Shown here in pieces: positions 1,528 through 58,676 of a stretch of DNA of 64,000 bases (position 1 is its first letter; each line of letters begins with the position of its first letter). This DNA comes from a virus. Taxonomy: Duplodnaviria > Caudoviricetes. The position numbers and the translations under genes were made by a program. The DNA lies in the IMG/VR virus record IMGVR_UViG_3300025011_000016; one strand, 5' to 3'. The notes under the pieces were generated by a model. It saw only the letters and a program-made list of their open reading frames with translations, was not told the origin of the DNA and searched no databases.

Positions 1528-4500
1528 ATGGCAGTAACACCACCAAAGAAAGTGGTCCCAAATTTATCATTGAAAGAAACATTGCAAGAGAAGGAACAAT
1601 TATATCATGGTAAAGATGATATATTCGGAATGACATTACTTACCAATCCAGGGTATATTAGTGCATCTCGAAACATTATGTTTACTTCTCATTTAAGACA
1701 ATTCGTAAATTTGAATAAACCGGATTTCCCAAAAGTATTAACGAATTATGAAAATCTTGTTGGTAAACATTCAACTGGATATTTCAAACCTAAGAATGAT
1801 TTAATCGTTGTGGATAAGATACCCAAGTTTAATGATATAAATGATGCAAATCATTTATATCTATTATTCTTATATGATAAGAAGACTAATACTTACTCCG
1901 TTATACAGAAAAAGATCGTTGAAGATCTAACAGAGAAGTTTGGTTTTAAATATAAGAATGATCTTATGGATTCTAAATCTATCGGAGATAAAATACAAGG
2001 AGGTAAAACATTATATTCATCCACATCATATGATGAAGATGATAATTATAACTATGGTAGAAATATTAAGTTTATGTATCTACTTGAAAACAATACTATT
2101 GAAGATGCCATAAAGTGCTCTGAATCGTTATCTAAAGAAATGACTTCGACTGAGGTTGAAACTGTAAAGATATCATTCAATGATAATGAAATCATGTGTA
2201 ATCTTTATGGCAACAATGATGAATACAAAGGTTTTCCAGATATTAATGAAAGGGTTAAAGATAAGATCATATGTGCCAAAAGAAGAATTCATAACAATCA
2301 ATTATTATTCGATCTAAAGAAATCAAATCTACGTAAGATTAATTTTATGTCAGATAACTTATTCTTTATTGATGGAAAGATTGTTGATATTACTATCTAT
2401 TCAAATAAACCTATTGGAGAAATTGAAGATAATATCTTTAATCATCAAATGTTAAAATACCTTAAAATGCAAAAAGAATTTTATACTAAAGTTTTAGATA
2501 GGTGTAAAAAGATAATTGCATCTGGAGCTAAATATTCAAATGAAATAAATTTCTATTATAAGAAAGCTAAGAATATATTAGACGATAATTACATGTACAA
2601 GGAAGAAGATAACAGTGTATTTAGTAATATGGTTATTGAATTCCTTGTTGAACGAGAAGTTCCTTTATCAGTAGGACAGAAGATTACTGGTCGTTACGGT
2701 AATATAATTGCTGTATTTTCTTTAATTGTCGGGGATATCCTTATAGCTTAAACTACTATTAGTAACAAGTTTAAGATTGGACAATTCGCAGCCAAGATTG
2801 TTAATAAACAATAAGGTTCAACGACTAGAGTGAAAACTCGTAGATTCGAAAGAATTGAAATGGGAAAACGATAGATTTTAATCTATTGAAGATATAGTCT
2901 AATATCCTAATGGAAGTTAGGGAAGTTCATAAGAGAACTGCATTATATAATAATGTGAATACTTGAATAAAGGTATTATAAGTCAGATCATACCAGATGA
3001 AGAAATGCCATTTCTTGAAACTGGTGAACGTGTCGATTGTATATTCAACTCCCTAAAATTTTGGGGCTTTATGTAGTGATATATAATGAAAACTACTTTA
3101 ATTGCGGGAAAATTCTTATGGCTTTATAATATAAAGATTGGACAATCCGCAGCCAAGATTGTTAGTAAACAATAAGGTTCAACGACTAGAGTGAGAACTC
3201 GTAGATATTAATATCGAAATTGGTAGAATCTTCTATATAGAAGATTATGAGATAGTCTGGTATCCTATATAACTATAGGGAAGTTCATAAGGGAACTGCA
3301 TTAATTAATAATTACTGTGAACACAACGAGGTGTGATAAATCGCTTAACTGAGAAGGTCCGGGCGATGTAAAACCTTTCTAATTGCGGGGACATTTGTTA
3401 ATTTCAATTTACCAAGTTAATATATTAATGGCTTAGTCCAATCAACTAAGGTATGGTAATAAGAATTGAAATTGAGTAATCCGCAGCCAAGATTGTTAAT
3501 AAACAATAAGGTTCAACGACTAGAGTGAAAACTCGTAGGTTTATTTATAAGCCGAAACGGAAGGCTGGTAATACTTAATATTATTAGAAGATATAGTCTA
3601 AAACATTTGTGAACTCATTTCAGTTATATGAGCAGTCAATAAATTTTATATGTAATCGCATAAGAGAAAGAATTGCGATAACAGAAGATATCTCTATAAA
3701 AGAACAAATGGTATTTAGTATTGTGGGTCATTTTAATCCTGAAGAACAAAGAAGACTTAGGATATATTATGATAAGTTATCAGATAATGGTAAGGATCAT
3801 TTCTTCGATGATATAGTCAAGCAAGGTATCTATATACACATTCCTCCACTTTGGGAAGACGTATGTTTATTCGATAAACTAAGAGCAATATATGCTGAAT
3901 TCACATGGATAAAACCATACTCAGTTTATGTGAATAAATTTGGAAGAAAGATCAAAATGATGAAGGATTTAATTGTCGGAGAAATGTATGTTCTTAAATT
4001 AAATCAAACTTCAAAGAAAGGTTTTTCAGCCAGATCCACTGGTTCGTTATCGAAGAGAGGAATTCCTATTTATTTATATGGGACTATATAGAGTAATCTA
4101 TATTGTGAAAACATTTTAATTGACGGGAAACTCCTTAGAACTTCTTAATTGAAGATTGGACAATCCGCAGCCAAGTCTCTTATAATAAGAGAAAGGTTCA
4201 ACGACTAATTTAGAGCTCAAGTGAGTGGATGAGAATCCTTTTAAATCAAAATAAATGTCATCCGTAAAAATAATAAATAACGGATGGTGATATAGTCTTG
4301 TATCCTATATAGTTATAGGGAAGTTCATAAGAGAACTGCATAGATTAACGACCTATGTGAAAGTATCGGAGAAATCAAATAAAGCAAAAACCCATCAAGA
4401 ATTATATCCACATACGCCTCAATTTGTAGGGGCTGTTGTATAGTAATATATAATGAATCTTTCTTAATTGACGGGAACCTTCTTAGAGCCTTATTTACTA

Positions 4501-5552
4501 AACTATAAGTATTATAGTGGCCAGAATAATTAACTGGGTATAGTAATAAAAATAAGGATTGGATAATCCGCAGCCAAGATTCTTATATAAGAATAAGGTT
4601 CAACGACTATCGAAAGCTTTTAATTAAGTTAGTAGAGTAAGCTCACAAGTCAATAATGGTGAGTTAAAACAGAAAGCTCCTAGAAATAGGATAAAGATAT
4701 AGTCTGCTATCTCAAGGAAACTTGAGGAGTTCATAATGGAACTGCATAAATTGACGATTTATGTGAACAAAAAAGGATACGAATTGGAGATTACTTATAT
4801 AGTTTCCCTGCATAGTAATATGCAGTTTAACAACTCTTTTAATTGACGGGAAACTCCTTAGTGCTTTATAATATAAAGATTGGACAATCCGCAGCCAAGC
4901 CTCTTTATGAGAGAAAGGTTCAACGACTAGAGCATTGCTCATAGATTTACAAGTTAATGGTAAGTCGAAATGGAGAGCTCTATTAATAAACTTTATTAAT
5001 AGATGAAGATATAGTCTGCACCTTAAAGAAATTTAAGGACAATCTTTTGAATTGTAATACATGTTACGAATGTATTTAACATATTGGCAGGAAAATATTA
5101 ACAGTATGATAGGTGTCGATCCAGACATCATAGCTAAACTACATTTATTCTATAGGTCTTCAGTTGTTGGAAGAAGAAACTTAGGTGAAACTTTGGCAAC
5201 TAGACTTAAGTTATTAAATGATTTTAAGTATTCTGCGGAATTCAAAAATAGAAATGTTGAAATTTTACAGGCATATTTAAAAGCTATGGGCGTAAAGATT
5301 GTATTTGAAAATGAGAATATGTATATTGAAATCTATACTGATCAGTTAGAAGAATATTCATCTGAGGGTAGGATATATATATGTACTAAACGTGAGTTTG
5401 AAGCCGTTCAGAGAGAAGCAGAAGTTCGCAGAGAGTTCCGTGAGGATAAGTGCTTAGTGGGAACTCATGCTGAAGTTGAAGCTATTATTCAAGCTCGTAT
5501 CAGCGATCTAAACAAACGAGATACTCATTATGTAATTGACATAAATTTATAA
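1528..5552 (+). CDS. rpoB: phage multisubunit RNA polymerase beta subunit, C-terminal half; 7 exons, about 755 aa after splicing (probably the non-virion enzyme)
   Basis: Exons 1528-2700, 2966-3054, 3329-3345, 3610-4067, 4369-4419, 4777-4791, 5088-5552 total 2268 nt, in frame. Joining restores GQKITGRYG|NKG, FNSL|GVINRL|N, SARSTG and TP|IRIGD|QE, matching beta motifs GDKxxGRHGNKG, NPLGVPSRMN, HARSTG and RFGEME. Confidence 0.9.
2701..2965 (+). ncRNA. group I intron, ORF-less (beta-C intron 1)
   Basis: 5' exon TACGGT|, IGS ATTGCTG. Core AATTGTCGGG / ATTCGCAGCCAAG / GTTCAACGACTA / AAGATATAGTCT. Ends ...AATACTTG. Confidence 0.9.
3055..3328 (+). ncRNA. group I intron, ORF-less (beta-C intron 2)
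   Basis: CTCCCT|AAAA pairs with TTTTGGGG (U-G at the splice site). Full P/Q/R/S. Ends ...ACACAACG. Confidence 0.9.
3346..3609 (+). ncRNA. group I intron, ORF-less, apparently lacking P9 (beta-C intron 3)
   Basis: ATCGCT| pairs with IGS GGCGAT. Full P/Q/R/S. Only about 10 nt (AAAACATTTG) separate S from the inferred terminal G. Confidence 0.75.
4068..4368 (+). ncRNA. group I intron, ORF-less (beta-C intron 4)
   Basis: TTCCT|AT pairs with ATGGGA. Full core. Ends ...AAGTATCG. Confidence 0.9.
4420..4776 (+). ncRNA. group I intron, ORF-less (beta-C intron 5)
   Basis: GCCT|C pairs with GGGGC. Full core with a longer P5 extension. Ends ...AAAAAAGG. Confidence 0.85.
4792..5087 (+). ncRNA. group I intron, ORF-less (beta-C intron 6)
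   Basis: GGAGAT|T pairs with AGTTTCC. Full core. The 3' site is G5087 (gives RIGDQE) or, less likely, G5090. Confidence 0.8.
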
Positions 5553-5582
5553 GGTGTGTTTATCACACCTTATTCTTTTTTT
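5550..5582 (+). terminator. intrinsic terminator after the beta-C gene
   Basis: AAGGTGTG-TTTAT-CACACCTT followed by a T tract. Confidence 0.75.
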
Positions 5583-5693
5583 ATTTCCGTATATATAGGA
5601 TTTATAAGTATATATTATAATATTAATAAACCTAAGAGTGTAAGTTAAGTTATACATATAAAGAGATATTTAGAAGGAGAGGAGAAATTTACT

Positions 5694-6518
5694 ATGATCC
5701 TTAAGAAAAATCTATTACCTATTATTAATACAACTGGAATTGCAAAGGTTATTGTGGTTGCTACTCAAAAAGGTGGATCTGCTAAGACAACATCTACATG
5801 TAATCTAGCTGTTGCTATGGCGGAACGAACAGGTAAACGAGTTGCCATAATTGATTTCGATCCACAAGGTCATGTTAGTACAACTTTTGGATATGATAAG
5901 ACAGCATATAAATCTACAATATATGATGTCCTTATTGGAGATCAACCATTAAGTTCAATCCGAGTAAAAACCAAATATGGAGTAGACATATATCCATCTA
6001 ATAGGGAACTTGCCAATATTGAACATGAAATCATCTTAAACAGAATTATGTTTCCAAGAGACAAGTTTGTGCTTAGAAATGTTATTGATGATATAAAACA
6101 TAGATATGATTATATCTTCATTGATACACCACCGAGTTTAAGTTTGATAACATTAAATGCTCTAGTGGCGGCAGATGAAATTCTTATTCCTGTCCAAATG
6201 GAACCATTGGGTGCTGACGGTCTAGTTGAATTGTTAGAAACTATAAGTTCAATAGTTAGACAATACAATCCCGATATTGTTATCAAAGGGGTTATTGGTA
6301 CTATGCTCGATAGACGAGCTAAGTCTATGGTTACTCAACTTGTCCAGGATATAAATATGTTCTGTGACAAAAATAAGATTCATATCTGTGAGACTTTCGT
6401 TAGGAGAGCGCCACGAATGTCTTATATTGGCGGTATACCTGTTATCTTAGGTGATCGTAAATGTGAAGCCGTTATGGATTATAAAAAAATATTAGAGGAG
6501 CTGTTCTGTTATGAGTAA
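5694..6518 (+). CDS. parA: ParA/Soj-family partitioning ATPase
   Basis: Deviant Walker A (KGGSAKTT), AIIDFDPQG, YIFIDTPP, ALVAADEILIPV. Confidence 0.9.
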   Translation: MILKKNLLPIINTTGIAKVIVVATQKGGSAKTTSTCNLAVAMAERTGKRVAIIDFDPQGHVSTTFGYDKTAYKSTIYDVLIGDQPLSSIRVKTKYGVDIYPSNRELANIEHEIILNRIMFPRDKFVLRNVIDDIKHRYDYIFIDTPPSLSLITLNALVAADEILIPVQMEPLGADGLVELLETISSIVRQYNPDIVIKGVIGTMLDRRAKSMVTQLVQDINMFCDKNKIHICETFVRRAPRMSYIGGIPVILGDRKCEAVMDYKKILEELFCYE

Positions 6519-7092
6519 GAAAGAAAAAATGCAACGTAGTACGTTAACACATTCACTTGAGCCGGTTGAATCACAAGGCTTTGATGACGAAGATTCTATT
6601 AGAAATGAGGAGGAAACTGCAATGAACAAAATTACCGAGGGAGAACAATCTAAACCGGATGGGAATATTGAAAATTTAATCGGGAGTATCAACAAAGAAG
6701 AAATCACTAGTGATAGTCAAATAAATGAAGTTTCAGGCACTACGGATGATAATGATCAACGTGTCCGTGTTCAATTACCCGAAAACGCGCTATATGATCA
6801 CAATGCAAAACAAGTGGTTGCCTTTGATTGTAGAGTTGGCGTTATATTGAATGGTGTGGAATTCAATCCAGAACAAATTGTTCAGAGAATATGGGATAGT
6901 ATCGAACGAAAAAGACTTGAGGGAATTAACGAGCCGCCCCGTATCATTCAATGGAAAAATAAACGTGAAGTCGAAAAGCCTAAACTAATAATTATTCCGG
7001 ACGTTCCTAAACAGGTATCAAAACCTGTAGTTACTCATAAGCCGGGTGCAGCTATATCAGCAATTGGAAGACAATTCGGAATGATGATTTAG
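6511..7092 (+). CDS. hypothetical protein translationally coupled to ParA
   Basis: 8-nt overlap with the parA stop. Acidic low-complexity N-half. No ParB motif recognised. Confidence 0.75.
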   Translation: MSKKEKMQRSTLTHSLEPVESQGFDDEDSIRNEEETAMNKITEGEQSKPDGNIENLIGSINKEEITSDSQINEVSGTTDDNDQRVRVQLPENALYDHNAKQVVAFDCRVGVILNGVEFNPEQIVQRIWDSIERKRLEGINEPPRIIQWKNKREVEKPKLIIIPDVPKQVSKPVVTHKPGAAISAIGRQFGMMI

Positions 7093-7100
7093 CAAATTAA

Positions 7101-7130
7101 TAGGAGGATTTTACAGATCCTTCTTTTTTT
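7101..7130 (+). terminator. intrinsic terminator after the parA operon
   Basis: GGAGGAT...ATCCTTC followed by a T tract. Confidence 0.7.
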
Positions 7131-7186
7131 TCTCTTAATATCAAATTTAAATATATATTATATAGTTGGATTAAAAAATATATGGG

Positions 7187-10100
7187 GTGAAAGATATGGA
7201 TAAGCAAAATATAATATCACAATTAAGTGATATTCATCAAAGGTTATTAGAAAAAGAAGATTTTGTTGATACTATACAGAGACTAGAATTAATGAAGATC
7301 AATAGACTTATCAATTATCTTTTATATGCAATTACTGAATATGATCCAGATGACAAATTAATACTTCAATTATTAATAAGGATATTGCAAAATATCTTTA
7401 ATAATAGTAGTGAAATATCTCCTGTGACCGATGAGGATTATGATAAATTATATGAGTTAAACAGACAATTTAATAATGAAGAAATTGTTGGATCGTCTTT
7501 TAATAAATCCAATAAGATAATTTCAAGTCATAAATATCCTGATTTGAGAGGAACTCTAGATAAGGTCCATTTCATTAGAATTAAAGATAAGGGTAAAGAC
7601 AAACGAAGATCTATAGAAGATTTTATTAATACTGTAGAAAATAAAATAGGCAGATCTTTAACTAAGGATGAATCATTCGCCTATCTATTTCCTAAATGGG
7701 ATGGTATATCATGTATATTCGAATGTGATGAAAATGGTAATACCGATAAGGCATTATCTAGAGGTGATACTGATATAAATGAAGCGGTCGACTGGACTAA
7801 ATTGTTTAAAGGATCTAATTTCAAGTATGTGTTCGGTAATGATATAAATAGATTATTTGGTTTAAAAACAGAGATTGTAATGAGTCGTTCAAATTATAAA
7901 TTAATATGTGAAAAAGAAGGAGATCTTAAAAGTCCAAGGAGTGCCGTATCGTCTATATTAACTTCATTAACTGGTGACACATCGAATTTACCATATCTAA
8001 CTATAATACCTTTACAGACTCAGGAGTTTGAAACTAAATCTATATATACTCCAACTATAGTATATGATGAGTTTCCATACAGTGGAGGATATTTAAACAA
8101 TTTAGATGAGATCGAATTAAGAATGTTGGAGTTAAGAGAACGTATTTATACTGAAATGGATATAGATACAGATGGTGTGGTTTTTCGTTTAGCTGATCCA
8201 TATATACAAAAACTATTGGGTCGGGAAGATAAGATAAATAAATATGAGTTTGCATATAAATTCCCTCCAGAACAAAAGAAAACTATAATTAAAAATGTTA
8301 ATTTCTCAGTTGGTCTTTTAGGTTCAGTGCGACCAGTAGCAGTAATAAAACCTGTTACAATAAAAGGTAATACTATAACCAATATATCATTGGGTTCTAT
8401 AGATAGATTTGAAGAATTGGATTTAAGATTAGGTGATGAAGTTATAATAAAATATGATGTTATACCATACCTATCAATAGATTCAACATGTAGAAAAGGA
8501 GATGGGACTAAGTTTACAACTCCAACAAAATGTATATATTGTAAGGAAGAATTAGTTAAAGATCCCATATTGAAATGTATTAACGAAAAATGTAATTGTC
8601 GAATTATAGGTAAGATTCTAAACTATACTAGTAAGATGAGTATTTCAAATATGGATGTTGGAACAGTAACCACTTTATTTGAAAATAAGTTATTACGATC
8701 TATTGGTGATCTATATAAACTCAAAGATCATAAATCTGATATAGTTTCATTAAGTGGTTTTGGTGAAAAATCCTTTAATAATATTATTAAAGGTATTGAT
8801 TCAAGACGAGATGTTTATGATTATGAGTTATTGGGTTCATTGGGTATTACAGATATAGGTAGGAAAATGTTTAAGCGAATTTTAAATATATATTATATTG
8901 ATGAACTTATAGATTCAAGTACATGAGTCTCATTGCATAGTGATATGTAATAGTAATTACTTTAATTGCGGGGATCTCCTTAGAACTTAAAACACTCTAA
9001 AGTAATAATGTTTAAGATTGGACAATCCGCAGCCAAGATTCTTAATAAAGAATAAGGTTCAACGACTATCCCAGTGGATGTGAAATTCATCATTAGGAGT
9101 AGGGCTCAAGTGAGTTGGGTGAAATCCCATTAAATCGAAATGAGTAACCCCATTATAAACCATTATAATGGGTGAAGATATAGTCTGTGCTTTAAGGAAA
9201 CTTAAAGATATAACTTAATCGTAAGTCCTAAAAATTTCATTTATATATTATTACTATGATACTAACAAATAATATAAGAAAGGAGGTGAATTAAATTGAT
9301 TAAAACTTTTAAAACAAGAATACGACCGACGAAAGAACAAGAAGTATATTTAAACAAATGCTTTGGATACAGAAGGTTTATATATAATAATGCTTTAGAA
9401 TACTTTAATACGATCTTAGAATTCAATGGTAATAATCTGGATAAAACATTAAAGAAGTTCTTTAATAAGTTTGATTATATCACTAATATATATTCTAAGA
9501 AAGAAAAAGAACCTGAACTGGAATGGACTAGGGAATATAATAAAAACATAAAGGATCAGGTATCTAGTGATTTTAATATAGCTGTTAATAGATTCTTTAA
9601 CGATATTAAAAATAAGAAGCGATGTAAACTTCATTTTAAAAGAAAGATCCATGGAAATGGGTCTTTTAGAATATACAATAAAAATAAAGGTAATGTTAAA
9701 ATTCTTGATAAAAACATATTCTCTTTTATTATTAATAGAGAATATGGTCATATGTCATTAAAAACATATGAAGATATAAGCTTTTTATATCATCATGATA
9801 TAAAAACTATGTCTATTCGTATGAAGAATTTTAAATATTATGTTTCATTCACCTATGAATTGGACATTCCAAAGCATGATCATGAGAAAGACATCATAGG
9901 TATAGACTTAGGGATACATAATCCAGTAGTTTGTTTTGATGGAAAAGATGTCATAGCTCCTAAATTTCCGAAAGGAATTATTAAGAGACTAGAGAAGAAA
10001 GTCGATAAGTTTTCAACGATAGTTTCTAAGAAGAAATATGATAAACGTAATCCATCAAAGAACTATATAAAAGCGAGAACCAAGCTTAATGATATTTATA

Positions 10101-10952
10101 TTAAAATAACAAATATCAGAATGGATTATATCCAGAAGGTATCTACATTTTTAGCTAAAACTTATAAAAACGTTATAGTTGATGAATTTAGTTTTAAGGA
10201 TGTATTAACAGAGTCTGATGGTATTGAGCGTATAAATAGAGGTATACACAGAGTTGGTGCCTTTACATTTACCACAGTGTTAAAATATAAATGCCACTTT
10301 TATGGTAGTGAATATATTTTAGCATTACCTAACAGTACGAACACATGCTCTGTTTGTAATCATAAAGTTAAAACTAAAATGAAGTTATCTCAAAGAGTCT
10401 TTAATTGCCCACAATGTGGACATATAGATGATAGAGATAACAATGCGGCTATTAATATCTATAATACATTTAAACGATCTTTATTAACTAACGTAAATAA
10501 AGATTTCGCCGTTGGTCGGACGGTTCAAAGAACCTAAACGGTTAAGTTATTATGGTATCTAACGAATACCATTAACACGACAGTTATGCCTAAAGAATAA
10601 GATGGGAGGGCTGTTATTAATCCGTGGGATTAAAGAAATAACAGCCGTTAAAATTATTGAGGGCATAAAGTCGAATAAAAAACTTATTGATTTATTACGA
10701 TCCGAGATTAATTTAAGGAGGGATGTAAGACGATATACAATTAAAGTATGTTTTACTAAAGTTAGAGATAAAGATTTTGAGAAATTTCTTGAAAGTAAGA
10801 ATGTATTGGTTCTTGAAAAATATAATAAGGAGGTTGATGTGTTAATCATACCTTATAAAGATATTGATTCAGTCAAAGTTACTACTGCGAAGAAAGATGG
10901 TAAGGATATCGTAACCATCGATGAAGCTTATAAGATGTTTGGTTATAAGTAG
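7187..10952 (+). CDS. ligA: NAD-dependent DNA ligase, 2 exons (about 698 aa)
   Basis: KWDG adenylation motif, SRGD, DGVV, AYKFPP, a Cys4 zinc finger and HhH repeats in exon 1 (7187-8914). Exon 2 (10584-10952) continues ELID|LCLKNK... into a BRCT-like C-terminus. Confidence 0.92.
9242..9251 (+). promoter_or_regulatory. early-type promoter motif inside the ligA intron, upstream of tnpB
   Basis: TATATATTAT lies downstream of the ribozyme core, 45 nt before the tnpB start. Confidence 0.55.
9296..10537 (+). CDS. tnpB: TnpB RNA-guided nuclease (IS200/IS605/IS1341-type)
   Basis: N-terminal HTH (RIRPTKEQ...CFGYRRFIYN), RuvC-I GIDLG, RuvC-II VDE, CxxC-CxxC zinc finger, RuvC-III DRDNNAAINI. AAGGAGGT RBS with TTG start. 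Confidence 0.93.
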   Translation: MIKTFKTRIRPTKEQEVYLNKCFGYRRFIYNNALEYFNTILEFNGNNLDKTLKKFFNKFDYITNIYSKKEKEPELEWTREYNKNIKDQVSSDFNIAVNRFFNDIKNKKRCKLHFKRKIHGNGSFRIYNKNKGNVKILDKNIFSFIINREYGHMSLKTYEDISFLYHHDIKTMSIRMKNFKYYVSFTYELDIPKHDHEKDIIGIDLGIHNPVVCFDGKDVIAPKFPKGIIKRLEKKVDKFSTIVSKKKYDKRNPSKNYIKARTKLNDIYIKITNIRMDYIQKVSTFLAKTYKNVIVDEFSFKDVLTESDGIERINRGIHRVGAFTFTTVLKYKCHFYGSEYILALPNSTNTCSVCNHKVKTKMKLSQRVFNCPQCGHIDDRDNNAAINIYNTFKRSLLTNVNKDFAVGRTVQRT

Positions 10953-11027
10953 CATTAATAAGAAATTATTTGCTACCTAACATATTAGTAAGGAAAAAAT
11001 AAAAAGAAGAAATGGGAGGGTTTAAAC

Positions 11028-11393
11028 ATGTCTAATTCAAACGAACAAGACAATTCACGCCTAATCGAAATCCGGGAAAACGTAAAGGAAATCAGCAAAA
11101 TTGCGGATCGGGCCGCCAAGTACCTTGATGAGGAAAACCGTATTACGATTACTCACTCACTGGCGATTCCGACGATCGTGTACGCATTCATGCGAGAAGC
11201 GATCAACTTCCTTACTGAAAATAAGGTGGTTGGTTCAGATATTGAAATTAATTTAATGCAGCTTTTGGATCTTGGTATTTCATACCGCGAAAACGACGAA
11301 GCCGAGAAAGAGGGTAATTTTACTCCTTATGCTCGACCGGGACAGGAATTTAAACTCCTCGTTAAGAGCGATGAAGATACTGAAGAGGCCTAA
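11028..11393 (+). CDS. hypothetical protein, possibly distantly HU/IHF-like
   Basis: GGGAGG RBS, own promoter motif and terminator, GC-richer codon usage. C-terminal YARPGQEFKLLVK resembles HU FKPGKELK. Confidence 0.7.
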   Translation: MSNSNEQDNSRLIEIRENVKEISKIADRAAKYLDEENRITITHSLAIPTIVYAFMREAINFLTENKVVGSDIEINLMQLLDLGISYRENDEAEKEGNFTPYARPGQEFKLLVKSDEDTEEA

Positions 11394-11403
11394 AACTGGC
11401 AAC

Positions 11404-11444
11404 GACATAGACAATGAGTTATTAACTAACTCATTGTCTATGTC
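11404..11444 (+). terminator. long perfect inverted repeat / terminator
   Basis: GACATAGACAATGAGTTA / TAACTCATTGTCTATGTC. Confidence 0.65.
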
Positions 11445-11525
11445 AATTTAATGATACAATTTTTTTATTAATTAAGAGATGTTTTGTAATAGTTTAAACA
11501 TTATAGAGAGTTGGGGGAGTAATTC

Positions 11526-14500
11526 TTGAAGGACTTCATAAAGGATTATAACAACACCAATGAAGAAAATATCAATTTTGATCTAATGACACGATCACAT
11601 GATGCTGATTTAACAGAGTATGTTGTTAATACCTGTAAATCATTAGAAGTTCTTAAATATATTAAATTCATTGGTTATGAATATATAACTGATGAAACGA
11701 AAATAGATATTAATTACTATATGAGTACGAGGAAGAAAAGTAAGAAGAAAAATGAAACAAAGTATATGTACCTGCAAGATAGTCGATATGGTGAAATGCA
11801 TTTAAAGTTTCATTTAAAATGTAAAGATCGATCATTAACTTTTATCAAGAAGATATTATTACCAGTGGCTGATGATAATGATTATTATTTAGTTAAAGGT
11901 AAAAGACATTCATTATTATATCAACTAGTTGATAGTTCAACTTATACAACTAGACAGAATTTAACATTAAAATCATTAAGACCTATTACGATGAAACGAA
12001 CTGAAAGAATATATTCAGATACAGATGGTACTAAACATTCAGCTCCTTCATATGCAATTTATATCTTCAAGAAAGAAGTAGATATATTATTATTCTATTT
12101 TGCAAAGATAGGTGTGTCAAGAACTTTAGAATATTTTTCAGTAAATCATATAATGAAGTTTAAATCAGAAATTGAAGATACTATCAATAATATATATTTC
12201 TCAATTAATAGTAAATTACATGTAGAGATCAATAGACATTTCTTTGATAAATATCCATATGTTAAGAGTATAGTATTTATGATATTGAATATTTGCACTA
12301 ATAGATTAACTGTTGAAGATCTAGAAAATAAATCTTTCTGGATTGAAAAGATAGGCTCTATGAATGCGACTAATGCATATAACTATCTAGAAAAAGGTAC
12401 TAATACTTTAGTATTCTTTGATAGGTTATTAGATGAAACAACTAAGAATATTTTAAAAATTCATGATGAGAATAATAAAAATATATACTCTGTAATTCGT
12501 TGGATTAAATTATAGTCCCATTATAGAGTGATCTATATTGAAAACTTCTTTAATTGTCGGGAAACTCCTTAGTGCTTTATAAAGATAAAGATTGGACAAT
12601 CCGCAGCCAAGATTCTTATAATAGGAATAAGGTTCAACGACTAATTTAGAGCTCAAGTGAGTGAGTTTAATATAACTCTTAAATCGAAATAAGAAGCATC
12701 TTATATAAGATGATGATATAGTCTGTGCTTTATTGAAAGATAAAGAAAGATAACATCTTTACATTATCTAACGAATAATGTTAACACTCAGGTTTCAAAA
12801 CTTTAATGAATTACGTAAGAAAGATAATCTTGATCTTGCCAATAAACGTTTACGATGTAATGAACTCATCGCATCATTATTAACTAAAGCTTTTAGTACT
12901 AGAGTTGATAGAATTATTGGTTTTGGTAATAAAGTTACGTTAGATAACATTAAGGAAATATTCAAATTTCCAGGTGATGTAATAATGCAGCAATTGCATA
13001 AGTCAGGATTATTTAGATATGATATTTTATTGTCCATTATAGTAGTGATATTATAATGAATTTTCTTTAATTGGCGGGGACATTCTTAGGGCTTAAACTA
13101 CTAAAATATATCAGTGATGATATACTAACTAAGAGTAACTAACTTAGTATGAGTAATAATGTTTAAGATTGGACAATCCGCAGCTAAGCATCTTTATATA
13201 AACCCCCATAATTATTAATACGTTATACAATATAAAGGAGAGGTGTGACTGTAATGAAAGGACGATTGGGTGAAAATAAATGTCCCTCTTGTTACGAATA
13301 ATTATTCAATTAATTCTGAGGGATTTATTAGGAATGATAAATTCAATAGAATTTTGACCCGATGGAAAAATAATAGAGGTTATGAAGCTGTGCAATTATC
13401 ATGTATTGATGGTATAACAAGAAGTTTTACAATTCATAGATTGATGGCTCATCATTTTATACCAGGGTTCGACATTTCAGATAGATCCATTGTTGTTCAT
13501 CATAAGGACAGTGTAAATAAAACTAACTCATTAGATCTTCTAACCGTTTGTACTCAAAAAGAAAATATTAAGTATTCTATCGAAGAAGGTAATAAACCAA
13601 ATGGTGAAAAACATCCGATGGGTAAATTTCCAGATGAGCTGGCTAATAAAATAGTTGCCTTATTACAAAAAGAAAAAAGTACCGATGAAATATTTAATAT
13701 ATTAGATTTAGAAGTTAAGAAGAATATGCGTATATTTATAAATGATCTTAGAGCTAAACGAACCCGATTGTATTTAACTGAAGGTTTGGATTTAAAGAAG
13801 CATGTGCAGGAAAAACATGATATAAACTTGGTGAAGAGGGTGATTCGTTATATGAAGATAGGTATGACGGTAGATAATATAATCAATATGATTGGAAAAG
13901 GAAATGCTGGTAGGCATGAAAGGGAGAGATACTCCTCGTTAATACAAAGGATACATGACGGGAAAGCGTGGGGAAGATTATATAAAGATGATAGTTCAAC
14001 GACTAATGATGACTACATGGTTATTAAAATTAAAATGTAGTTATAGATTTACAAGCTAATGGTAAATCGAAATGGGGAACACCTCATATTAAGTTGATAT
14101 GAGATGAAGATATAGTCTGGTATCCTAATATTAAATTAGGGAAGTTCATAAGAGAACTGGGTTTCGTTGCGGAAAACCTGAACCTGGGGATAAAATTAAC
14201 GATCTCGACTTCTTTAGTAAGTTCAAATATACCCTAAATTTTGGGGCGTTATAGAGTGATCTATATAGATAAAATTCTTTAATTGTCGGGGAACTCCTTA
14301 GAACTTCTTAATTGAAGATTGGACAATCCGCAGCCAAGATTGTTGATAAACAATAAGGTTCAACGACTAGAGTATAACTCGTAGATATATAAGTTAATGA
14401 TATATCGAAATAAGTTTAATCTTCTTATAGAAGATTGTGATATAGTCTTGTATCCTATATAACATTAGGGAAGTTCATTTGAGAACTGTATAGAGTTACG

Positions 14501-15746
14501 ATCTATATGAAAGTATACGTAAAGGACCAAATTCCTTGGGTTTTAATAAATAGGCCCATGATCTTTTAATTGCGGGAAACTCCTTAGTACTTCTATATGA
14601 AGATTGGACAATCCGCAGCCAAAATTGTTGATAAACAATAAGGTTCAACGACTAGAGTATAACTCGTAGATATATAAGTTAATGATATATCGAAATATAG
14701 AACTATCGAAAGATAAAGAGATAGTCTGGTATCCTAATTAACATTAGGGAAGTTCACAGGAGAACTGCATTATTTTACGAATAATGTGAACTCATCGAAT
14801 AAAAATGATAATAATATCTCAGTTAAATATCGCGGCATACACCCGAGTTATCTGGCCCGCGTAGATATTAACGTTTGCGGTGAACGTAGAAATATAATTG
14901 CCGCCTTTTCTTTAATTGACGGGAACTCCCTTATAGCTTAAACTACTAATAGTAACAAGTTTAAGATTGGACAATCCGCAGCCAAGATTGTTATAAAACA
15001 ATAAGGTTCAACGACTAGAGTGATAACTCGTAGATTCGAAAGAATTGAAATGGGAAAACGATAGAGTTATTCTATTGAAGATATAGTCTAATATCCTAAT
15101 ATAAGTTAGGGAAGTTCATAAGAGAACTGCATAGATTGATAAACTGTGTGAATAAATGAATTCAGACCCTAGAAATAAATTTGGGGCAATATCGAGTGAT
15201 CGTTATTGTTAAACTACCTTGACTGCGGGAAACTTCTTAGAGCTTTAAATTGATAAAGATTGAACAATCCGCACCCGATATTCTATATAATAGAATAAAG
15301 TTCAACGACTAGAGCATATTTGCTCGTAGATATAAAGTTATATCGAAATTAGTAGAATCTCTTAGGAGATTATGAGATAGTCTGGTATCCTATATAACTA
15401 TAGGGAAGTTCATAAGAGAACTGTACTATTTAACGAATAGTATGAACACACGGGAACTAGTGGTATTATAACACCATTCTGTAAAACTAGTGGATTATTC
15501 TTCGATGGTGCATTTGAACCAGAAAGTTTTAAATATGATTTTGATAAGGAGATAACTGACTTTAGAAAATCAACTAGTAATAACATAATTGTTGATACTC
15601 ACTATGATAATATATCTGAGTATTTTGAAGGTAGAGAACGATTTAAAGAAATGAATAGTCGAATCAAAATATCAGAGATTGAACGAACTGATAATAGTAA
15701 GTATTATATTAAAATTAAGCTTGCTAGTAATACTGATGATATATAA
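11526..15746 (+). CDS. rpoB: phage multisubunit RNA polymerase beta subunit, N-terminal half; 7 exons, about 556 aa after splicing
   Basis: Exons 11526-12505, 12792-13023, 14189-14235, 14520-14541, 14798-14881, 15159-15170, 15453-15746 total 1671 nt, in frame. YYLVKGKRHSLLYQL corresponds to FIINGxERVxVSQL. Joining gives KYTL|KGPNSLG and RGIHPSYLARVDINVCG|NSDP|GTSG (beta GPGG and [23 protein letters not shown]). Confidence 0.88.
12506..12791 (+). ncRNA. group I intron, ORF-less (beta-N intron 1); closest 'empty' relative of the two TnpB introns
   Basis: GGAT|TA pairs with TAGTCC. Full core. The 3' domain GTCTGTGCTTTA...CTAACGA...TAACACTCAG parallels that of the TnpB introns. Confidence 0.9.
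13024..14188 (+). mobile_element. group I intron carrying an HNH endonuclease in P6 (beta-N intron 2)
   Basis: TGAT|A pairs with TTGTC. Q at ~13176 and R at ~13994 are separated by the ORF, with arms CATCTTTATA / TATAAAGATG. Ends ...AACCTGGG. Confidence 0.85.
13270..14040 (+). CDS. intron-encoded HNH homing endonuclease
   Basis: GYEAVQL, IHRLMAHHF, VHHKD..NK.N..L, QKEN. Its last codons overlap the intron R element. Confidence 0.8.
   Translation: MKINVPLVTNNYSINSEGFIRNDKFNRILTRWKNNRGYEAVQLSCIDGITRSFTIHRLMAHHFIPGFDISDRSIVVHHKDSVNKTNSLDLLTVCTQKENIKYSIEEGNKPNGEKHPMGKFPDELANKIVALLQKEKSTDEIFNILDLEVKKNMRIFINDLRAKRTRLYLTEGLDLKKHVQEKHDINLVKRVIRYMKIGMTVDNIINMIGKGNAGRHERERYSSLIQRIHDGKAWGRLYKDDSSTTNDDYMVIKIKM
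14236..14519 (+). ncRNA. group I intron, ORF-less (beta-N intron 3)
   Basis: CCCT|AAA pairs with TTTGGGG. Full core. Ends ...AGTATACG. Confidence 0.9.
14542..14797 (+). ncRNA. group I intron, ORF-less (beta-N intron 4)
   Basis: GGGT|TT pairs with AGGCCC. Full core. Ends ...CTCATCG. Confidence 0.88.
14882..15158 (+). ncRNA. group I intron, ORF-less (beta-N intron 5)
   Basis: GCGGT|GA pairs with TTGCCGC. Full core. Ends ...AATAAATG. Confidence 0.9.
15171..15452 (+). ncRNA. group I intron, ORF-less (beta-N intron 6)
   Basis: CCCT|AG pairs with TTGGGG. Variant core ACTGCGGG / ATCCGCACCCG / GTTCAACGACTA / GAGATAGTCT. Ends ...ACACACG. Confidence 0.88.
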
Positions 15747-15821
15747 GGAAACTAAAATTTCCATTATATTCCTGCTCTAATAAAATAAAGATAAGGGCTT
15801 AAAAACCCTTATTTTTTTAAA

Positions 15822-15855
15822 TATATATTATATAATGAATCAAGTAAATATATAA
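15822..15855 (+). repeat. 34-bp exact direct repeat, copy 1 (promoter and leader cassette)
   Basis: TATATATTATATAATGAATCAAGTAAATATATAA, identical at 16615-16648. Confidence 0.9.
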
Positions 15856-15870
15856 AGGGGGAATTACATA

Positions 15871-16539
15871 ATGACTGACAAAGAAAAAATTAAACAACAT
15901 CCTGCGTATATCCAGTACATTAAAAACCCTAGTAAAAAACTTCAAAAAATTGCACTTAAGAAAAGTGGAGGTAGTATATTCAAGTATATTAAAAAACCAA
16001 GTAAGAAAATTCAATTTCTTGCAGTTTCATTATTTGATCGTAATATTAAATACATCAAAAATCCGCGTGAAGGATTGCAATTAGCGGCAGTTCAAAATGA
16101 TGGATCGAATATTCAATATATTAAAAATCCGAGTACTATGATTCAACATAAGGCGGTATCTACAAATGGTGACGCTATTAAATATATCAAAAATCCGAGT
16201 GAGGAAATACAATTAGCTGCTATATATGAAAACCCATGGAGTATTAAATATATCAATAACCCCAATAAACGTGTGCAGTTAGCTGCTGTGACGTTAGTTG
16301 GTCATGTAATTCAATACATTAATACAGACCTTGACAAAGACGTGCAGTTAGCTGCAATAAAAGAGAATAAATATGTAAGTAAATATGAACATGAAAACAT
16401 TACCATCGACCCATATGATACGGATGATGGATGTTCTGTGTTGCCATATCGATATATGCGTCGTGATATATTACCATTCGCGTATATTCAAAACCCAGAT
16501 CCTGATGTAATTGACTATATGGTGCGGAATATATTATAA
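15871..16539 (+). CDS. tandem-repeat protein (DUF4116-like)
   Basis: About 22-aa repeats IQYIKNPSxxxQLAAV. Confidence 0.75.
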   Translation: MTDKEKIKQHPAYIQYIKNPSKKLQKIALKKSGGSIFKYIKKPSKKIQFLAVSLFDRNIKYIKNPREGLQLAAVQNDGSNIQYIKNPSTMIQHKAVSTNGDAIKYIKNPSEEIQLAAIYENPWSIKYINNPNKRVQLAAVTLVGHVIQYINTDLDKDVQLAAIKENKYVSKYEHENITIDPYDTDDGCSVLPYRYMRRDILPFAYIQNPDPDVIDYMVRNIL

Positions 16540-23358: not shown

Positions 23359-23359
23359 T

Positions 23360-32300: not shown

Positions 32301-33134
32301 AGAACTGCATTATCTGACGAATAGTGTGAACATATCTCGTATTATGAATTTCATTAACGAAGCAGATCGAGAAATCCATGTCTGCATATACAGTGATGTA
32401 TATTAAAAAACTATTTTAATTGTCGGGGATCTCCTTAATGCTTTATTTAATAAAGATTGGACAATCCGCAGCCAAGATTCTATTTAATAGAATAAGGTTC
32501 AACGACTATCGAAAGCTTTTAATTAAGTTAGTAGAGTAGATTACATATTGATGGTAATCGAAGTGGAGAGCTCCAATATTAAAATTAATTAATTTTAATA
32601 TTGGATGAAGATATAGTCTAGTATCCTAATGTAAATTAGGGAAGTTCATAAGAGAACTGCATGTGAGTTATGACATATGTGAATATATCGTATGCCAAAA
32701 CCCTAGTCATGGCAAATGCTAAGTTTGTCGGTCGAGTTATAACACATCAGGGATCATTTAATGGATCAGTTACTGAATTCTATAAGAAACTAATGGGATT
32801 TGCAACTGAAATACCTGAGAATTTAATCGATGAATTTGAATATATATTTGCTGCACCGAAAACATTAACTAATACTAATCTAACTGATCTTATATCTAAT
32901 GCTGAACAAACTGCTACATTTATTGTGAAATCATTAACTGGTGATAATTCATCCCCTAGTGATGATGATAACTTATTAAAAGATTTGTTATTTAATAAAA
33001 TCTCTAGAGAATTCCTACCAATGATTCCATGGAGTACTGCTGATACAATATTAGAGGAGTGTAAGATAGAATTGGAGAAGTTGAAAGCTGAAAAGAAAAT
33101 GACTACTCCTGAAGGTACTGAAGACGTACAATAA
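29374..33134 (+). CDS. portal protein (T4 gp20-like), 3 exons, about 754 aa
   Basis: Exons 29374-31166, 32340-32367, 32691-33134 total 2265 nt, in frame. ELFIPVGRSG..GLEFDIISGQ...FISLTGVPS resembles the gp20-type pattern. Located in the morphogenesis cluster. Confidence 0.75.
31167..32339 (+). mobile_element. group I intron carrying an HNH endonuclease in P6 (portal intron 1)
   Basis: TCGGT| pairs with GCCGA. Q at ~31306, R at ~32142, S at ~32255. Ends ...TATCTCG. Confidence 0.87.
31401..32138 (+). CDS. intron-encoded HNH homing endonuclease
   Basis: YLVSDWGTV, YYEVTL, IHRLVAETFL, VVNHK, NNCVLNLEHTT..YN. Confidence 0.88.
   Translation: MRNIVEIFKPIYIYGERTNYLVSDWGTVMNGTTKKELKQRLNADNYYEVTLWVNNKAVNRRIHRLVAETFLENPNNYPVVNHKKGGLTEDGQWNNCVLNLEHTTISYNTKHAYDTGLKNPLVGEECGFNIYPEPLIDKIINKLLMAIPPDIIADELGVKVSLVTSVRDGYSWKHKIKGLVFPKPAFAHTNEYTYELKFKILNLLYVGKTTKEIIERLDLPKKNKFKSLIDNIRRRNMERMIINIR
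32368..32690 (+). ncRNA. group I intron, ORF-less (portal intron 2)
   Basis: GCAGAT| pairs with GTCTGC. Full core. Ends ...TATATCG. Confidence 0.88.
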
Positions 33135-47798: not shown

Positions 47799-47818
47799 TT
47801 TATTTATAACCCCCTCAG

Positions 47819-50436: not shown

Positions 50437-50519
50437 AATGAAATAATAGAGGTGGTGTAACTCCATCTGTATTATTTCATAATCGTTATTATAAACAATA
50501 CTATAAAAAAATATTATGA

Positions 50520-51488: not shown

Positions 51489-51580
51489 TATAAAGAATGA
51501 TATAAGTGATTTAAATCACTTATATCATTCTTTATGTATTACATTATTATAATAACTAAACGATAAGGAGTGATAAATTT

Positions 51581-52306: not shown

Positions 52307-52347
52307 TCTATAACGATCAACATTATAATAAAAAATAATTAGGTGGT

Positions 52348-52794: not shown

Positions 52795-52848
52795 AAAATA
52801 AATATATCGGAGTTACTTTAAAGTAACTCCGATATATTTTATTAAAAA
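52795..52848. terminator. bidirectional terminator after dps
   Basis: AATATATCGGAGTTACTTT / AAAGTAACTCCGATATATT. Confidence 0.8.
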
Positions 52849-54769: not shown

Positions 54770-54772
54770 AAA

Positions 54773-55135: not shown

Positions 55136-55240
55136 TTATCCAACCCTTTCTTAATAAAAAAATGACATGTTATGAATAGAAATAAAACTTTCTATTCATA
55201 ACATGTTTTATTAAATATTTGTTAAACGGTTAATTATATA

Positions 55241-55756: not shown

Positions 55757-55809
55757 TATTATCCACCCCCATTTTATACCATTATTCTCTTGTTTAAATC
55801 GAAGTATAA

Positions 55810-55850
55810 TAAAAAAATAACTAGAGATAAAATCTCTAGTTATTTTTTTA
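55810..55850 (-). terminator. terminator after the beta' gene
   Basis: AAAAAAATAACTAGAGAT / ATCTCTAGTTATTTTTTT. Confidence 0.8.
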
Positions 55851-55854
55851 TAGT

Positions 55855-58676
55855 TTATGGTCTGGATTTAAAGAAAGAATCTATATAAGAAGCTTCTCTC
55901 TTTTTAAATGTTAATGGATTAATAAGTTGTCGTCCTAATGCCTGGAAGGATAAACCTATTAAGACAGAAGGATGTTTTTCTAATGCGGATTCAACAGTCA
56001 TTATTTGATACTCAGCTTTTTCACCATACTTACTGAAATCCGGTCTATATAAGATATCCTTACTGTGTCTTAATAGAGGGTGTATCAACAATTCACCATG
56101 AACCGCATCTGAATCAATTTTAGATTCGATTAATAGATCTAACATCTTTTGACATAACTCATCAACAGATCTACATCCAACATGATCACTTCTATTAAGT
56201 AAATACATGATGTTATAAAGAGGACGTGTCAATTCGTTATTCTCAATTTCTAATACGAATATCTTAGAATCATCATCAATTTTAGCAAAGTCAATTTCAT
56301 AAGCGTCTTTATGAGATTTACTCTTATTCATTAACTCAACTATATCTGGAGATATATATAAGTCTTTCTGATTCAATTCCATACATTCTATAATCTCACC
56401 AGATTTTTTATGTTTAACATGGAATATAGTTACAAATGTATTGAAATCAGTATCATCATATTCATTAATACTAATAATATTTTTATTAATAATAACTAAA
56501 GAATAATCATTTAAGTTAATGTCGTCATTAGTTATATTAAGAAGAATTTCATTTGCATTAATAGTGAAAAACTTATAGAAATCAGCATTGAATTCTATCT
56601 TTTCCGAAACTGTTGTTAGTAGGTGTTTAGTTGATAATACTCTCTGAGATACAGGTTCTGTTATTCTTGATCCAGCATATCCACCAATAGAGATACCTTT
56701 ATTGGTATGATATAGTTGCCCATAACAATGCCAACATATTCCATCTTTAGCTGAACAAGTTGCTGGAGATTTAACATAGATAGTTTTACCAACAATATTT
56801 TCCTCATGACCTTCAATGACGTTATAATCTCTAGTATTCTCAAGACGATAATATCTTCCCTGTAATCGTCTTAAATGCTCTTTAGTTTTGATTTCGTATT
56901 GAATTGAATGAATGCTATTACATGTTTTAACAGTAGGACTTAATTTTATTCCTGATGTTAAAAGCATTACTAATCGTGCAAACGTATTTTCATATAGATC
57001 GTAAATCCATACAGTTCTCTAATGAACTTCCCTATAACTATATAGGATACAAGACTATATCACCATCCAATGATGGATGATTCTTATTTCAGTTTAACTA
57101 TAAACTTACGAGCTTTTACTCTAGTCGTTGAACCTTTCTCTTAGTAAGAGTATTGGCTGCGGATCGTCCAATCTTCAATTAAGAAGTTCTAAGGAGTTCC
57201 CCGTCAATTAAAGAAATTTTCTCATTATATATTACTATATAATGCCACCTGTAATTGATGGCCAGATCTACCCATACGTAAGTTGACATTATTCGTTACA
57301 TAATGTAGTCCACAAAGAACTCCCTATATTTCTATAGGATACCAGACTATCTCTTCTCATTTAATTAAATGAGTCTCTCCATTTCGATTTAAGAGTTTTC
57401 ACACCCACTCACTTTGAGCTCTAAATTAGTCGTTGAACCTTTCTCTTATTATAAAGAGACTTGGCTGCGGATTATCCAATCTTAAACATTATTACATTAG
57501 TAGTTTAAGCAGTAAGGAACTTCCCGTCAATTAAAAGAGAAATGGCTAAAAATTAACCAGTTTATTCATAATTAATGATTTTCTTCCACCACGATACTTT
57601 CACATAGGTCGTTAATCCATGCAGTTCTCTTATGAACTTCCCTAATATTTATTAGGATACAAGACTATATCACAATCTTCTATATAGAAGATTCCATTAA
57701 TTTCGATATAACTTTATATCTACGAGTCACGCTCTAGTCGTTGAACCTTATTCTTATATAAGAATCTTGGCTGCGGATTGTCCAATCTTCAATTAGAAGT
57801 TCTAAGGAGTTTCCCGTCAATTAAAATAGTTTTACAACATAAGTCCACCTATGCCGCCCCAAGTTGTTTTAGGGAGTCAATATAGTAATTAGTGATGTTG
57901 GATAATCCCCCTACTATGAAGTTACTATTGATCGGATGGGGGATTGTATTTCCAGAAAGATCCGGCTTCAGCCCCCCACTAATTGCGAACTCTGCTAACT
58001 GTTTATGTTTAATCCCAGCACCAGATTTTAGTATTGGCTGTAGCATATTTCCAACAGGATCATTTTCTAAAATGGCAACTTGCTCATGCATTAGATCATC
58101 TAGTAATGATTCTATTTCCGTAGGTTGAAGTCCGTCTGGAATAACCGTTCGTATGATTTCGTTAAATCTAGGTATACGTTCGCTTACGTCAATAAACGTC
58201 TCAATATTAATTGATAACCCCAATATCATATTAAAGTCAGTTGATATTCTAGATAGATTGTGGATCATATCTGCAATTACTTTATTCATTTTAGTATTAC
58301 TGATAATCTTTCTAAATGGTAAAACTATCTTTCTATCAACATATGATTTGATATAATCTGCCGATATCTTACTACAATCAACTATATAAGATTCATTCAA
58401 TCTATCAATATAACCCAACTTCATCATCGGTGACCAAAACATATAATTTGTTAAGAAATGTCTTAATTGGAGAGTATGAATTTGTTCTCCTTCTTTATCT
58501 GAAAATTTAAAATACACTGGGCATGTTCTCAACTCCTTAACTTCAAACCCTCGTTTTAAATAATCATAGAACAACTCTAGATTAGCTTTGTAGTCCTTCT
58601 TAGTAGCCATTAAGTTTGAGATAATAAAGATCTTATTGGATAGCTCACTGATTATTTTTCCTACATCCGAATCCAA
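55855..58676 (-). CDS. rpoC: phage multisubunit RNA polymerase beta' subunit, C-terminal half; 4 exons, about 662 aa
   Basis: Exons 58676-57871, 57591-57556, 57276-57258, 56982-55855 total 1989 nt, in frame. SGAG..Q...SGGLKPD, bridge-helix region YYIDSL|GGRKSLIMNKLV|MGRSGH|FARL, zinc site C..DGICWHCYG, trigger loop ITEPVSQRVLSTKH. Confidence 0.9.
56983..57257 (-). ncRNA. group I intron, ORF-less (beta' intron 3)
   Basis: GCCAT| pairs with GTGGC. Full core. Ends ...AAATACG. Confidence 0.9.
57277..57555 (-). ncRNA. group I intron, ORF-less (beta' intron 2)
   Basis: TGGT|TA pairs with TAGCCA. Full core. Ends ...ACTTACG. Confidence 0.9.
57592..57870 (-). ncRNA. group I intron, ORF-less (beta' intron 1)
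   Basis: CCCT|AA pairs with TTGGGG. Full core. Ends ...AAGTATCG. Confidence 0.9.

Follow-up and report, generated by a model that had tools for sequence, protein, structure and literature searches.

Analysis of a 64,000-nucleotide (nt) stretch of viral DNA (IMG/VR record IMGVR_UViG_3300025011_000016; Duplodnaviria, Caudoviricetes; referred to as the window) revealed 24 group I introns in seven essential genes, in which the triplet directly in front of the insertion site predicted whether the paired region P2 of the ribozyme is present. With a probability of about 0.6, we attribute this link to the descent of short 5' guide modules together with the need for a G/C-rich P1 helix, and not to a structural law. 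The window (64 kb of a genome of ~272 kb, G+C ~30%) comes from an AR9-like jumbo phage of groundwater. The AR9/PBS1 jumbo phages are its nearest cultured relatives, with an RNA polymerase (RNAP) beta subunit that is ~42% identical and a conserved gene order; metagenomes hold many closer relatives, and the runs containing the window sequence are groundwater metagenomes. The interrupted genes encode two RNAP beta-type subunits, a third RNAP-type subunit (termed gene 3), a NAD-dependent ligase, part of a family-B DNA polymerase, a virion protein, and the large terminase subunit (TerL).

Altogether, 21 of the 24 introns follow CCT, GAT, or GGT, with seven introns for each triplet, though these triplets make up only 14.9% of the T positions in the seven coding sequences (p=6e-15). 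All 21 of the corresponding 5' splice sites listed in a first-pass annotation, made from the letters alone, proved correct; each of its coordinates is the last exon base, by which introns are also designated here. The remaining three introns follow GCT (3345), AGT (25778), and CAT (57258). Based on alignment and minimum free energy folds with ViennaRNA, only P1 was found in all seven GGT introns, as the first-pass annotation had stated, and P1 plus a tetraloop-capped P2 was found in 16 introns, including all CCT and GAT introns as well as AGT_25778 and CAT_57258. The number of introns without P2 is eight and not seven, as GCT_3345 belongs to them in addition to the GGT introns. For the 24 window introns, the association of GGT with the P2-less state was significant (Fisher p=2.3e-5). 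We also recovered the four introns after CCCT with the internal guide sequence (IGS) TTGGGG (3054, 14235, 15170, and 57871), which are distributed over three genes as described before. Thus, for this window, the link between triplet and P2 is confirmed and has firm statistical support.

The 5' splice sites were set by P1 pairing and the 3' splice sites by reading frame and homologues. Excision of the 24 introns resulted in seven full-length open reading frames (ORFs) of 755, 698, 556, 606, 754, 685, and 662 amino acids (aa), and every intron revealed a terminal G together with an exon joining that rebuilds the gene. In the first RNAP gene, metagenome homologues agreed residue by residue with all six junctions, among them those of the short exons LGVINR (17 nt) and IRIGD (15 nt), and the junctions of the remaining genes were in agreement with AR9 and LPJP1. 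Gene 3 is uninterrupted (556 aa) in one relative, motif A of the DNA polymerase was rebuilt as DMD-MG-AFYPN spanning a 6-nt exon, and ligase and terminase were rebuilt across two tnpB-bearing introns of 1.65 kb. Since the insertion phases were mixed (phase 0 in 15 introns, phase 2 in eight, and phase 1 in one), the triplets are not merely Gly, Pro, and Asp codons.

Searching against Rfam, 18 of the 24 introns reached the gathering threshold of RF00028 (>=50 bits), one more scored 43 bits, and the other five gave partial matches broken by ORF or insertion sequence (IS) inserts. All 24 could be aligned through P3 to P9 (E-INS-i, ~290 columns) with near-invariant P4, P6, and P7 strings, and ViennaRNA folding of the 5' regions revealed in each a P1 in which the end of the 5' exon pairs with the internal guide and U.G lies at the splice site. 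Introns of subgroup IA2 are characterized by extra P7.1/P7.2 hairpins between P7 and P3'; in the Rfam alignments, an insert of 25–60 nt with two short hairpins was found in this position. Judged from these sequence features, the 24 group I introns form a single family, probably of the phage type (IA2-like), and are predicted to be self-splicing. They share a 3' tail consisting of P9, P9.1 (AGUUCAUAAGAGAACU), P9.2, GAA plus 3–8 nt, and the terminal G. Because the Rfam model ends at P9, the 3' ends given by Rfam are ~45 nt short of the true terminal G in most introns. The P9.1/P9.2 tail is common to window introns (e.g., 2891–2965) and AR9 (95600–95700), but absent from GCT_3345, and in both tnpB-bearing introns (IStrons) the 3' splice site is located beyond the tnpB cassette. 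While 18 of the introns do not carry an ORF, the other six harbor a nuclease gene, an ORF without Pfam match, or a TnpB gene.

Following contigs of the same phage past the window (99.99% identical in the overlap), we identified 10 further introns. Those after GTGGT, CGGT, ACGGT, AAGGT, and GTGT lacked P2; those after AGCCT, GGAT, and TTGAT (an IStron) possessed it, as did an IStron-like intron after GGAT with an uncertain junction. An intron after TTGGGT, ~7 kb upstream of the window, carried an HNH gene and possessed P2. In the sampled part of the phage, GGT sites thus carried 10 introns without and one with P2, and the association with the P2-less state was retained for the window plus the 10 further introns (Fisher 5e-6). 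In this phage, the link is therefore a strong tendency, but not a law.

Unlike in the window, the presence of P2 in AR9 is not tied to the triplet. In the AR9 terminase, validated by reading frame and homology to the window TerL, introns after CTGGGT and ACGCT lacked P2, while those after TATGGT (95713) and ACTCCT possessed it; the latter and the window intron at 43220 share the insertion site TTP^D (the caret marks the insertion point in the protein). Further AR9 introns at GGT with P2 were found at 89132, 152012, and 174563, with P1 helices of 5–7 bp, and P2-less introns occurred also at TTGGAT and TTGCCT. Contig L108, a close relative with an RNAP beta that is 66% identical, revealed an intron with P2 after GGGT at ITG^RYG (junction aa 388/389). 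Two versions of an automatic procedure for calling 5' splice sites and P2 found no more than 13 and 15, respectively, of the 24 established sites, so that ~179 family matches from IMG/VR were left out as a replicate set. The curated set also leaves out the introns of L090, which belong to a more distant subfamily; this 39.8-kb IMG/VR contig of an unrelated virus carries ~15 group I introns in 12 kb.

Site use in the window depended steeply on the number of G/C bases at positions -4 to -2. No intron was found at 1564 sites without G/C, five at 2099 sites with one, seven at 792 sites with two, and 12 at 93 sites with three such bases, i.e., 12/93 SSST sites were occupied vs. 0/1564 WWWT sites (S, G or C; W, A or T), and for CGGT and CCCT, each 4 of 15 sites. 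The use of so few triplets is thus mostly accounted for by the requirement for a stable P1 in an AT-rich genome. The information at the sites was confined to positions -4 to -1, with nothing shared further up- or downstream, and flank similarity within a triplet class was no higher than between classes. One pair of flanks was an outlier (3054 and 57871, IFNS^LGV vs. YIDS^LGG), and BLASTP gave no alignment around these two sites that would indicate paralogy of the RNAP subunits there.

Two 5' guide modules were found to recur at unrelated sites. The module of the TTGGGT intron of the same phage is identical at 41 of 48 positions to that of L108, from the splice site to P3 and with compensatory changes in P2; the two introns reside in different RNAP subunit genes, and their exons share only GGGT. 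Similarly, window intron GGT_28008 in the DNA polymerase gene and an intron in the RNAP beta gene of L016 (SLG^V) have UGGGU at the splice site and AAAU..UGCUCAU in common, and both lack P2.

The first-pass annotation had proposed that sub-lineages spread to sites matching their guide, and a core tree omitting P1 and P2 had been set beforehand as a check. We calculated this tree with IQ-TREE from 256 columns, which start at P3 and reach the 3' end. Host genes did not group on it (16 changes vs. 15.4 expected, p=0.83), and triplets clustered only weakly (10 changes vs. 13.4 expected, p~0.009), with five changes for the GGT state. Approximately unbiased (AU) tests rejected clades for GGT (p=0.0006), CCT (0.0007), and the P2-less introns (0.0014), while a GAT clade was not rejected (p=0.13). 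A starred clade unites introns 2700, 14881, and 27218, which are located in three genes and all follow CGGT. Thus, the proposal is partly supported, and only for the short 5' module, as two modules recur, sites share only positions -4 to -1, and host genes do not cluster, whereas the triplet classes as a whole are not clades.

The cores themselves are mosaic. In the P3–P6 segment, GGT_28008 shows 95% identity to its neighbor GAT_27699, only 6 nt away, while the other segments of GGT_28008 are closer to CCT and CAT introns, and GGT_14541 resembles its neighbor CCT_14235. In a tree including AR9 and other relatives, cores grouped by genome (AR9 clade 98/95) and not by triplet, P2 state, or site, and introns at orthologous sites of two genomes were less alike than paralogues of the same genome. 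From these comparisons, the cores appear to be recombined or homogenized, evolving in concert within each genome. Being mosaic and clustered by genome, they provide a tree that is unable to trace a short, site-bound 5' segment, and it is because of this concerted evolution that the sub-lineage reading fails on the core tree.

According to the reading that we prefer, each intron would consist of two parts with separate histories, namely a short 5' module, comprising the P1 loop, the IGS, and P2 or its absence, and the catalytic core. As the 5' module must pair with its own exon, it would be bound to its insertion site and retain its ancestry, while the core, from P3 to the 3' end, would be shuffled and homogenized by recombination among the introns of one genome. 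Two causes may then produce the link. First, in an AT-rich genome only exon ends giving a G/C-rich P1 would be used, which leaves few triplets. Second, the P2-less state would represent one or a few lineages of 5' modules, which in this phage clade nearly always come with a G-C-Y guide pairing with GGU. Thus, we infer a shared ancestry of the P2-less modules, and modules seem to have reached new genes at sites matching their guide.

Several points weigh against this interpretation. G/C bias alone does not explain the lower use of GCT and CGT relative to GGT and CCT (7, 7, 1, and 0 introns observed vs. 5.9, 3.2, 3.4, and 2.6 expected for GGT, CCT, GCT, and CGT). CCT_14235 and GAT_12505 have identical P2 hairpins beside different guides, so guide and P2 are separable, a point against a fixed module. 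With no more than 20–45 nt, the 5' modules are short, and they are AT-rich, so that their common descent is not amenable to a tree, and P2 may also have been lost repeatedly and independently. Clustering of the cores by genome could in part reflect recent proliferation within each genome instead of homogenization. Finally, most AR9 junctions outside TerL were derived from P1 helices of 5–7 bp read by eye.

As an alternative, the introns may not have spread within the genome at all, but each may have entered its cognate site, or be kept there, by DNA-level homing from co-infecting relatives (HNH, GIY-YIG, TnpB), with gene conversion making the introns of one genome alike and the triplets merely marking sites of a stable P1. 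This is conceivable, though we regard it as somewhat doubtful. It would account for sites shared with relatives, namely TTP^D in TerL (window and AR9), GRYG^NKG in RNAP beta (L017), INR^L (L108), and KFT^L in gene 3 (L017), and for the ORFs of many relatives that stop at these sites. Nuclease or TnpB genes in six introns, the dependence of site use on G/C, and the grouping of cores by genome, with same-genome paralogues closer than orthologous-site pairs, also fit homing. However, the relatives are far poorer in introns, with 1–3 introns per RNAP beta/ligase/gene 3 region vs. 13 here, and L017 does not have the intron at 14541, so that in this lineage many of the sites seem to have been filled recently. 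In addition, one 5' module in non-homologous genes requires some ectopic moves, and a free-standing homing nuclease was not found among the window ORFs of at least 100 aa. In four groundwater/sediment runs, no Logan contig joined exactly the 5' to the 3' splice site in the region 1400–16000; since the repeated intron cores cause breaks and false joins in these contigs, they say nothing on intron-less alleles. The k-mer depth at the cores was 4–9 times that of the exons (runs X1, X2, and X4; in X1 ~300 in the exons vs. 1400–2800 at the cores), as expected for a multi-copy repeat, which is a trap for the assembly of such phages.

Guide-defined sub-lineages might also have spread by reverse splicing of excised intron RNA into transcripts matching the guide over 4–6 nt, followed by reverse transcription and recombination. 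The first-pass annotation had favored this route over endonuclease homing; this preference found no support in view of six ORF-bearing introns, the IStron-type target of the GAT class, sites shared with distant relatives, and the lack of a reverse transcriptase among the window ORFs of at least 100 aa, and we consider the route unlikely. Heterologous sites do share only the guide-pairing bases (-4 to -1) with flanks that are no closer within a class, which is one expected signature of reverse splicing. The ORF-less state of 18 of the 24 introns, the heavy use of the rare 4-mers CGGT and CCCT, the sisters 2700/14881/27218 in three genes, and the near-identical 5' modules at non-homologous GGGU sites of different genes point in the same direction, and a precedent exists in ribosomal DNA (rDNA) introns (PMC1299323; review PMC3984707). 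However, a second signature, grouping by guide class instead of host gene, was not seen, as triplet classes are not clades, with recombination confounding the core tree. Only 3–4 nt are shared, and insertion at the DNA level would leave the same match to the guide, provided that any insertion has to splice for viability. Between sister introns, positions -4/-5 vary and the guide carries compensating changes, and several sites are occupied in distant relatives, which speaks for old residence or homing. No RVT family was detected among window ORFs of at least 100 aa, a search that covered the window and not the rest of the ~272-kb genome or the host. Tentatively, the ORF-less mini-introns of this jumbo-phage clade might move into further genes by guide-directed integration, be it reverse splicing or an equivalent ribozyme-guided process, keeping the 5' module while their cores are homogenized; this, too, we hold to be improbable. 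Between reverse splicing and DNA-level insertion with subsequent selection for splicing, the data fit either, and the tie of the GAT class to IStrons could offer a DNA-level route via an IS200/IS605-type target (TTGAT-like).

A structural rule, by which P1 helices of GGU/GCC dock without P2 while those of CCU and GAU need it, would fit 7/7 GGT introns in the window and 10/11 in the sampled part of the phage, but is very improbable, as it is refuted by the GGT introns with P2 of the same family in AR9 (95713 validated, besides the three others), L108, and the same phage, and by introns without P2 that follow GAT or CCT in AR9 and GCT or TGT in this phage.

The GAT class is related to IStrons. 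The ORFs at 9296–10537 and 39826–41064 matched Pfam OrfB_IS605, HTH_OrfB_IS605, and Cas12f1-like_TNB, and both are located inside introns whose excision restores ligase and TerL, i.e., the fusion by which group A IStrons are recognized. These two tnpB introns (8914 and 41428) form a starred clade with the ORF-less introns 12505 and 27699, which do not carry the IS part. The two window IStrons have conserved their final ~60 nt (P9.1/P9.2-like hairpins, ..AACACGACAG); they are inserted after TAGAT and ATGAT and end with ACAG, while their ORF-less relative 12505 ends with TCAG. Group A IStrons target TTGAT/ATTAT/TTTAT and end with TCAG (PMC4227781). No tnpA gene was found among window ORFs of at least 100 aa. 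A third IStron copy of the same phage (L160 ~4925–6700) interrupts a helicase-like gene after TTGAT. Another tnpB gene was found ~12.4–13.6 kb past the window end (L162 13816–15048); nhmmer with the intron core model detected no ribozyme near it, so that it may be a plain IS remnant or part of a diverged intron.

The RNAP beta gene (1528–5552, plus strand) harbors six introns. The first (2701–2965, GGT, no P2) occupies the GRYG^NKG site, and the second (3055–3328) follows CCCT with the IGS UUGGGG and has a P2 with a GUGA loop. The third (3346–3609) follows GCT after the 17-nt exon, lacks P2 as well as P9.1/P9.2, and has an orthologous copy in L108. Two CCT introns with P2 (4068–4368 and 4420–4776) and a GAT intron with P2 after the 15-nt exon (4792–5087) complete the set. 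The ligase gene (plus strand) is interrupted by an IStron-type intron (8915–10583) after ATAGAT, with P2 and tnpB. Gene 3 (11526–15746, plus strand) also carries six introns. Two GAT introns with P2 are located at 12506–12791, with a 3' end (TCAG) as in IStrons, and at 13024–14188, with an ORF (13270–14040) of 256 aa for which Pfam gave no match, in contrast to the HNH/NUMOD4 ORFs that three further introns carry. They are followed by a CCCT intron with P2 (14236–14519) that has an orthologous copy in L017, a GGT intron without P2 after a 22-nt exon (14542–14797) that is the one missing in L017, a CGGT intron without P2 (14882–15158), sister of the intron at 2701, and a CCCT intron with P2 after a 12-nt exon (15171–15452).

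In the DNA polymerase gene (24990–28600, plus strand), we identified an AGT intron (25779–26757) with a P2 (GCGA loop) and an HNH ORF (25946–26563), a CGGT intron without P2 (27219–27470), a GAT intron with P2 at the motif A aspartate (27700–28002), and a GGT intron without P2 (28009–28264) after the 6-nt exon ATGGGT. This exon, which lies within motif A, is at the same time the entire exon strand of the P1 of the next intron. The virion protein gene (29374–33134, plus strand) contains a CGGT intron without P2 (31167–32339) with a NUMOD4 ORF (31401–32138) and a GAT intron with P2 (32368–32690). On the minus strand, the TerL gene carries a CCT intron with P2 (42207–43219) at TTP^D, as in the AR9 TerL, with an HNH/NUMOD4 ORF (42401–42982), and an IStron-type intron with P2 and tnpB (39780–41427) after TATGAT. 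The gene for the second RNAP subunit (58676–55855, minus strand) harbors a CCCT intron with P2 (57592–57870), a TGGT intron without P2 (57277–57555), and a CAT intron with P2 (56983–57257). Six short exons separate adjacent introns, namely those of 6 nt (28003–28008), 12 nt (15159–15170), 15 nt (4777–4791), 17 nt (3329–3345), 19 nt (57258–57276), and 22 nt (14520–14541). Outside the window, ~20.4 kb past its end on the minus strand (L163 ~11166–12447), a GIY-YIG-bearing intron, whose core was missed by nhmmer, interrupts an RNAP beta'-type gene and is separated by only 9 nt (TACGACGGT) from the next intron, which lacks P2.

Apart from the introns, the family-B DNA polymerase seems to be split into two genes ~35 kb apart. 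Its N-terminal part up to motif A corresponds to the intron-rich gene, and a DNA_pol_B match was found in a 644-aa gene at the window end (63488–64000, running on; L161 10408–12342). A tubulin (PhuZ-like) gene is located ~4.4–3.3 kb before the window start (L158 4077–5213), and genes for a ParA/MinD-type ATPase (5694–6518) and an SMC/Rad50-like ATPase (20692–23358) inside it. The window revealed no tRNAs, no RNAP beta relatives were detected among viral contigs by a peptide-pattern scan, and a search for the virion-RNAP gene via the AR9 exon gave no protein of the window genome.

Whether group I introns gain new sites naturally by reverse splicing is an old question, for which the evidence is circumstantial and mostly from rDNA. 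In this phage clade, dozens of close, mostly ORF-less introns reside in protein-coding genes, site occupancy varies among relatives, and guide modules are recognizable at unrelated sites. Should guide-directed integration be true, this would be a natural system to follow RNA-guided intron transposition into protein-coding genes across populations. As cores evolve in concert within a genome, core phylogenies are unfit to infer site choice in such families, and a striking rule linking sequence to architecture in one genome can be a founder effect.

Compared with known systems, the nuclear rDNA group I introns (Bhattacharya et al. 2005, PMC1299323) are alike in that related introns occupy heterologous sites similar only in the guide-paired bases; the window introns differ by protein-coding hosts in a DNA phage, a core phylogeny scrambled by recombination, and DNA-level mobility genes within the same family. 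The introns of the SPO1/SP82 DNA polymerase and of Twort (PMC3984707) likewise hit conserved or catalytic motifs of essential genes and carry HNH ORFs in peripheral loops, and megablast revealed similarities of window introns to Staphylococcus phage introns. Unlike these, the window introns are mostly ORF-less mini-introns (252–357 nt) with many paralogous copies per genome. With group A IStrons (CdISt1 type; Tourasse et al. 2014, PMC4227781; Zedaveinyte et al., bioRxiv 10.1101/2023.11.20.567912), the tnpB-bearing copies share an IA2-like intron toward whose 3' end the IS200/IS605 ORF B (TnpB) is located, an insertion site behind a T-rich pentamer with GAT as its last bases, and a 3' end ..CAG; they differ by the missing tnpA, the jumbo phage host, and TAGAT/ATGAT rather than TTGAT.

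As cited in PMC12350094, the group I introns of Bacillus phage AR9 were reportedly described with its genome by Lavysh and coworkers in 2016. AR9/PBS1 (Takahashivirus) carry the same intron family, with the same P4/P6/P7 strings and the P9.1 AGUUCAUAAGAGAAC tail. By Rfam, AR9 has ~18 copies in host genes of the same kinds (RNAP subunits, terminase), uses the triplets GGT, CCT, GAT, GCT, and CAT, and shares one identical insertion site, TTP^D in TerL. The window phage differs by a denser set (24 introns in 64 kb), tnpB-bearing copies, and host proteins that are only ~42% identical. Altogether, the window is a dense case of already known kinds, namely AR9-type phage introns and IStrons.

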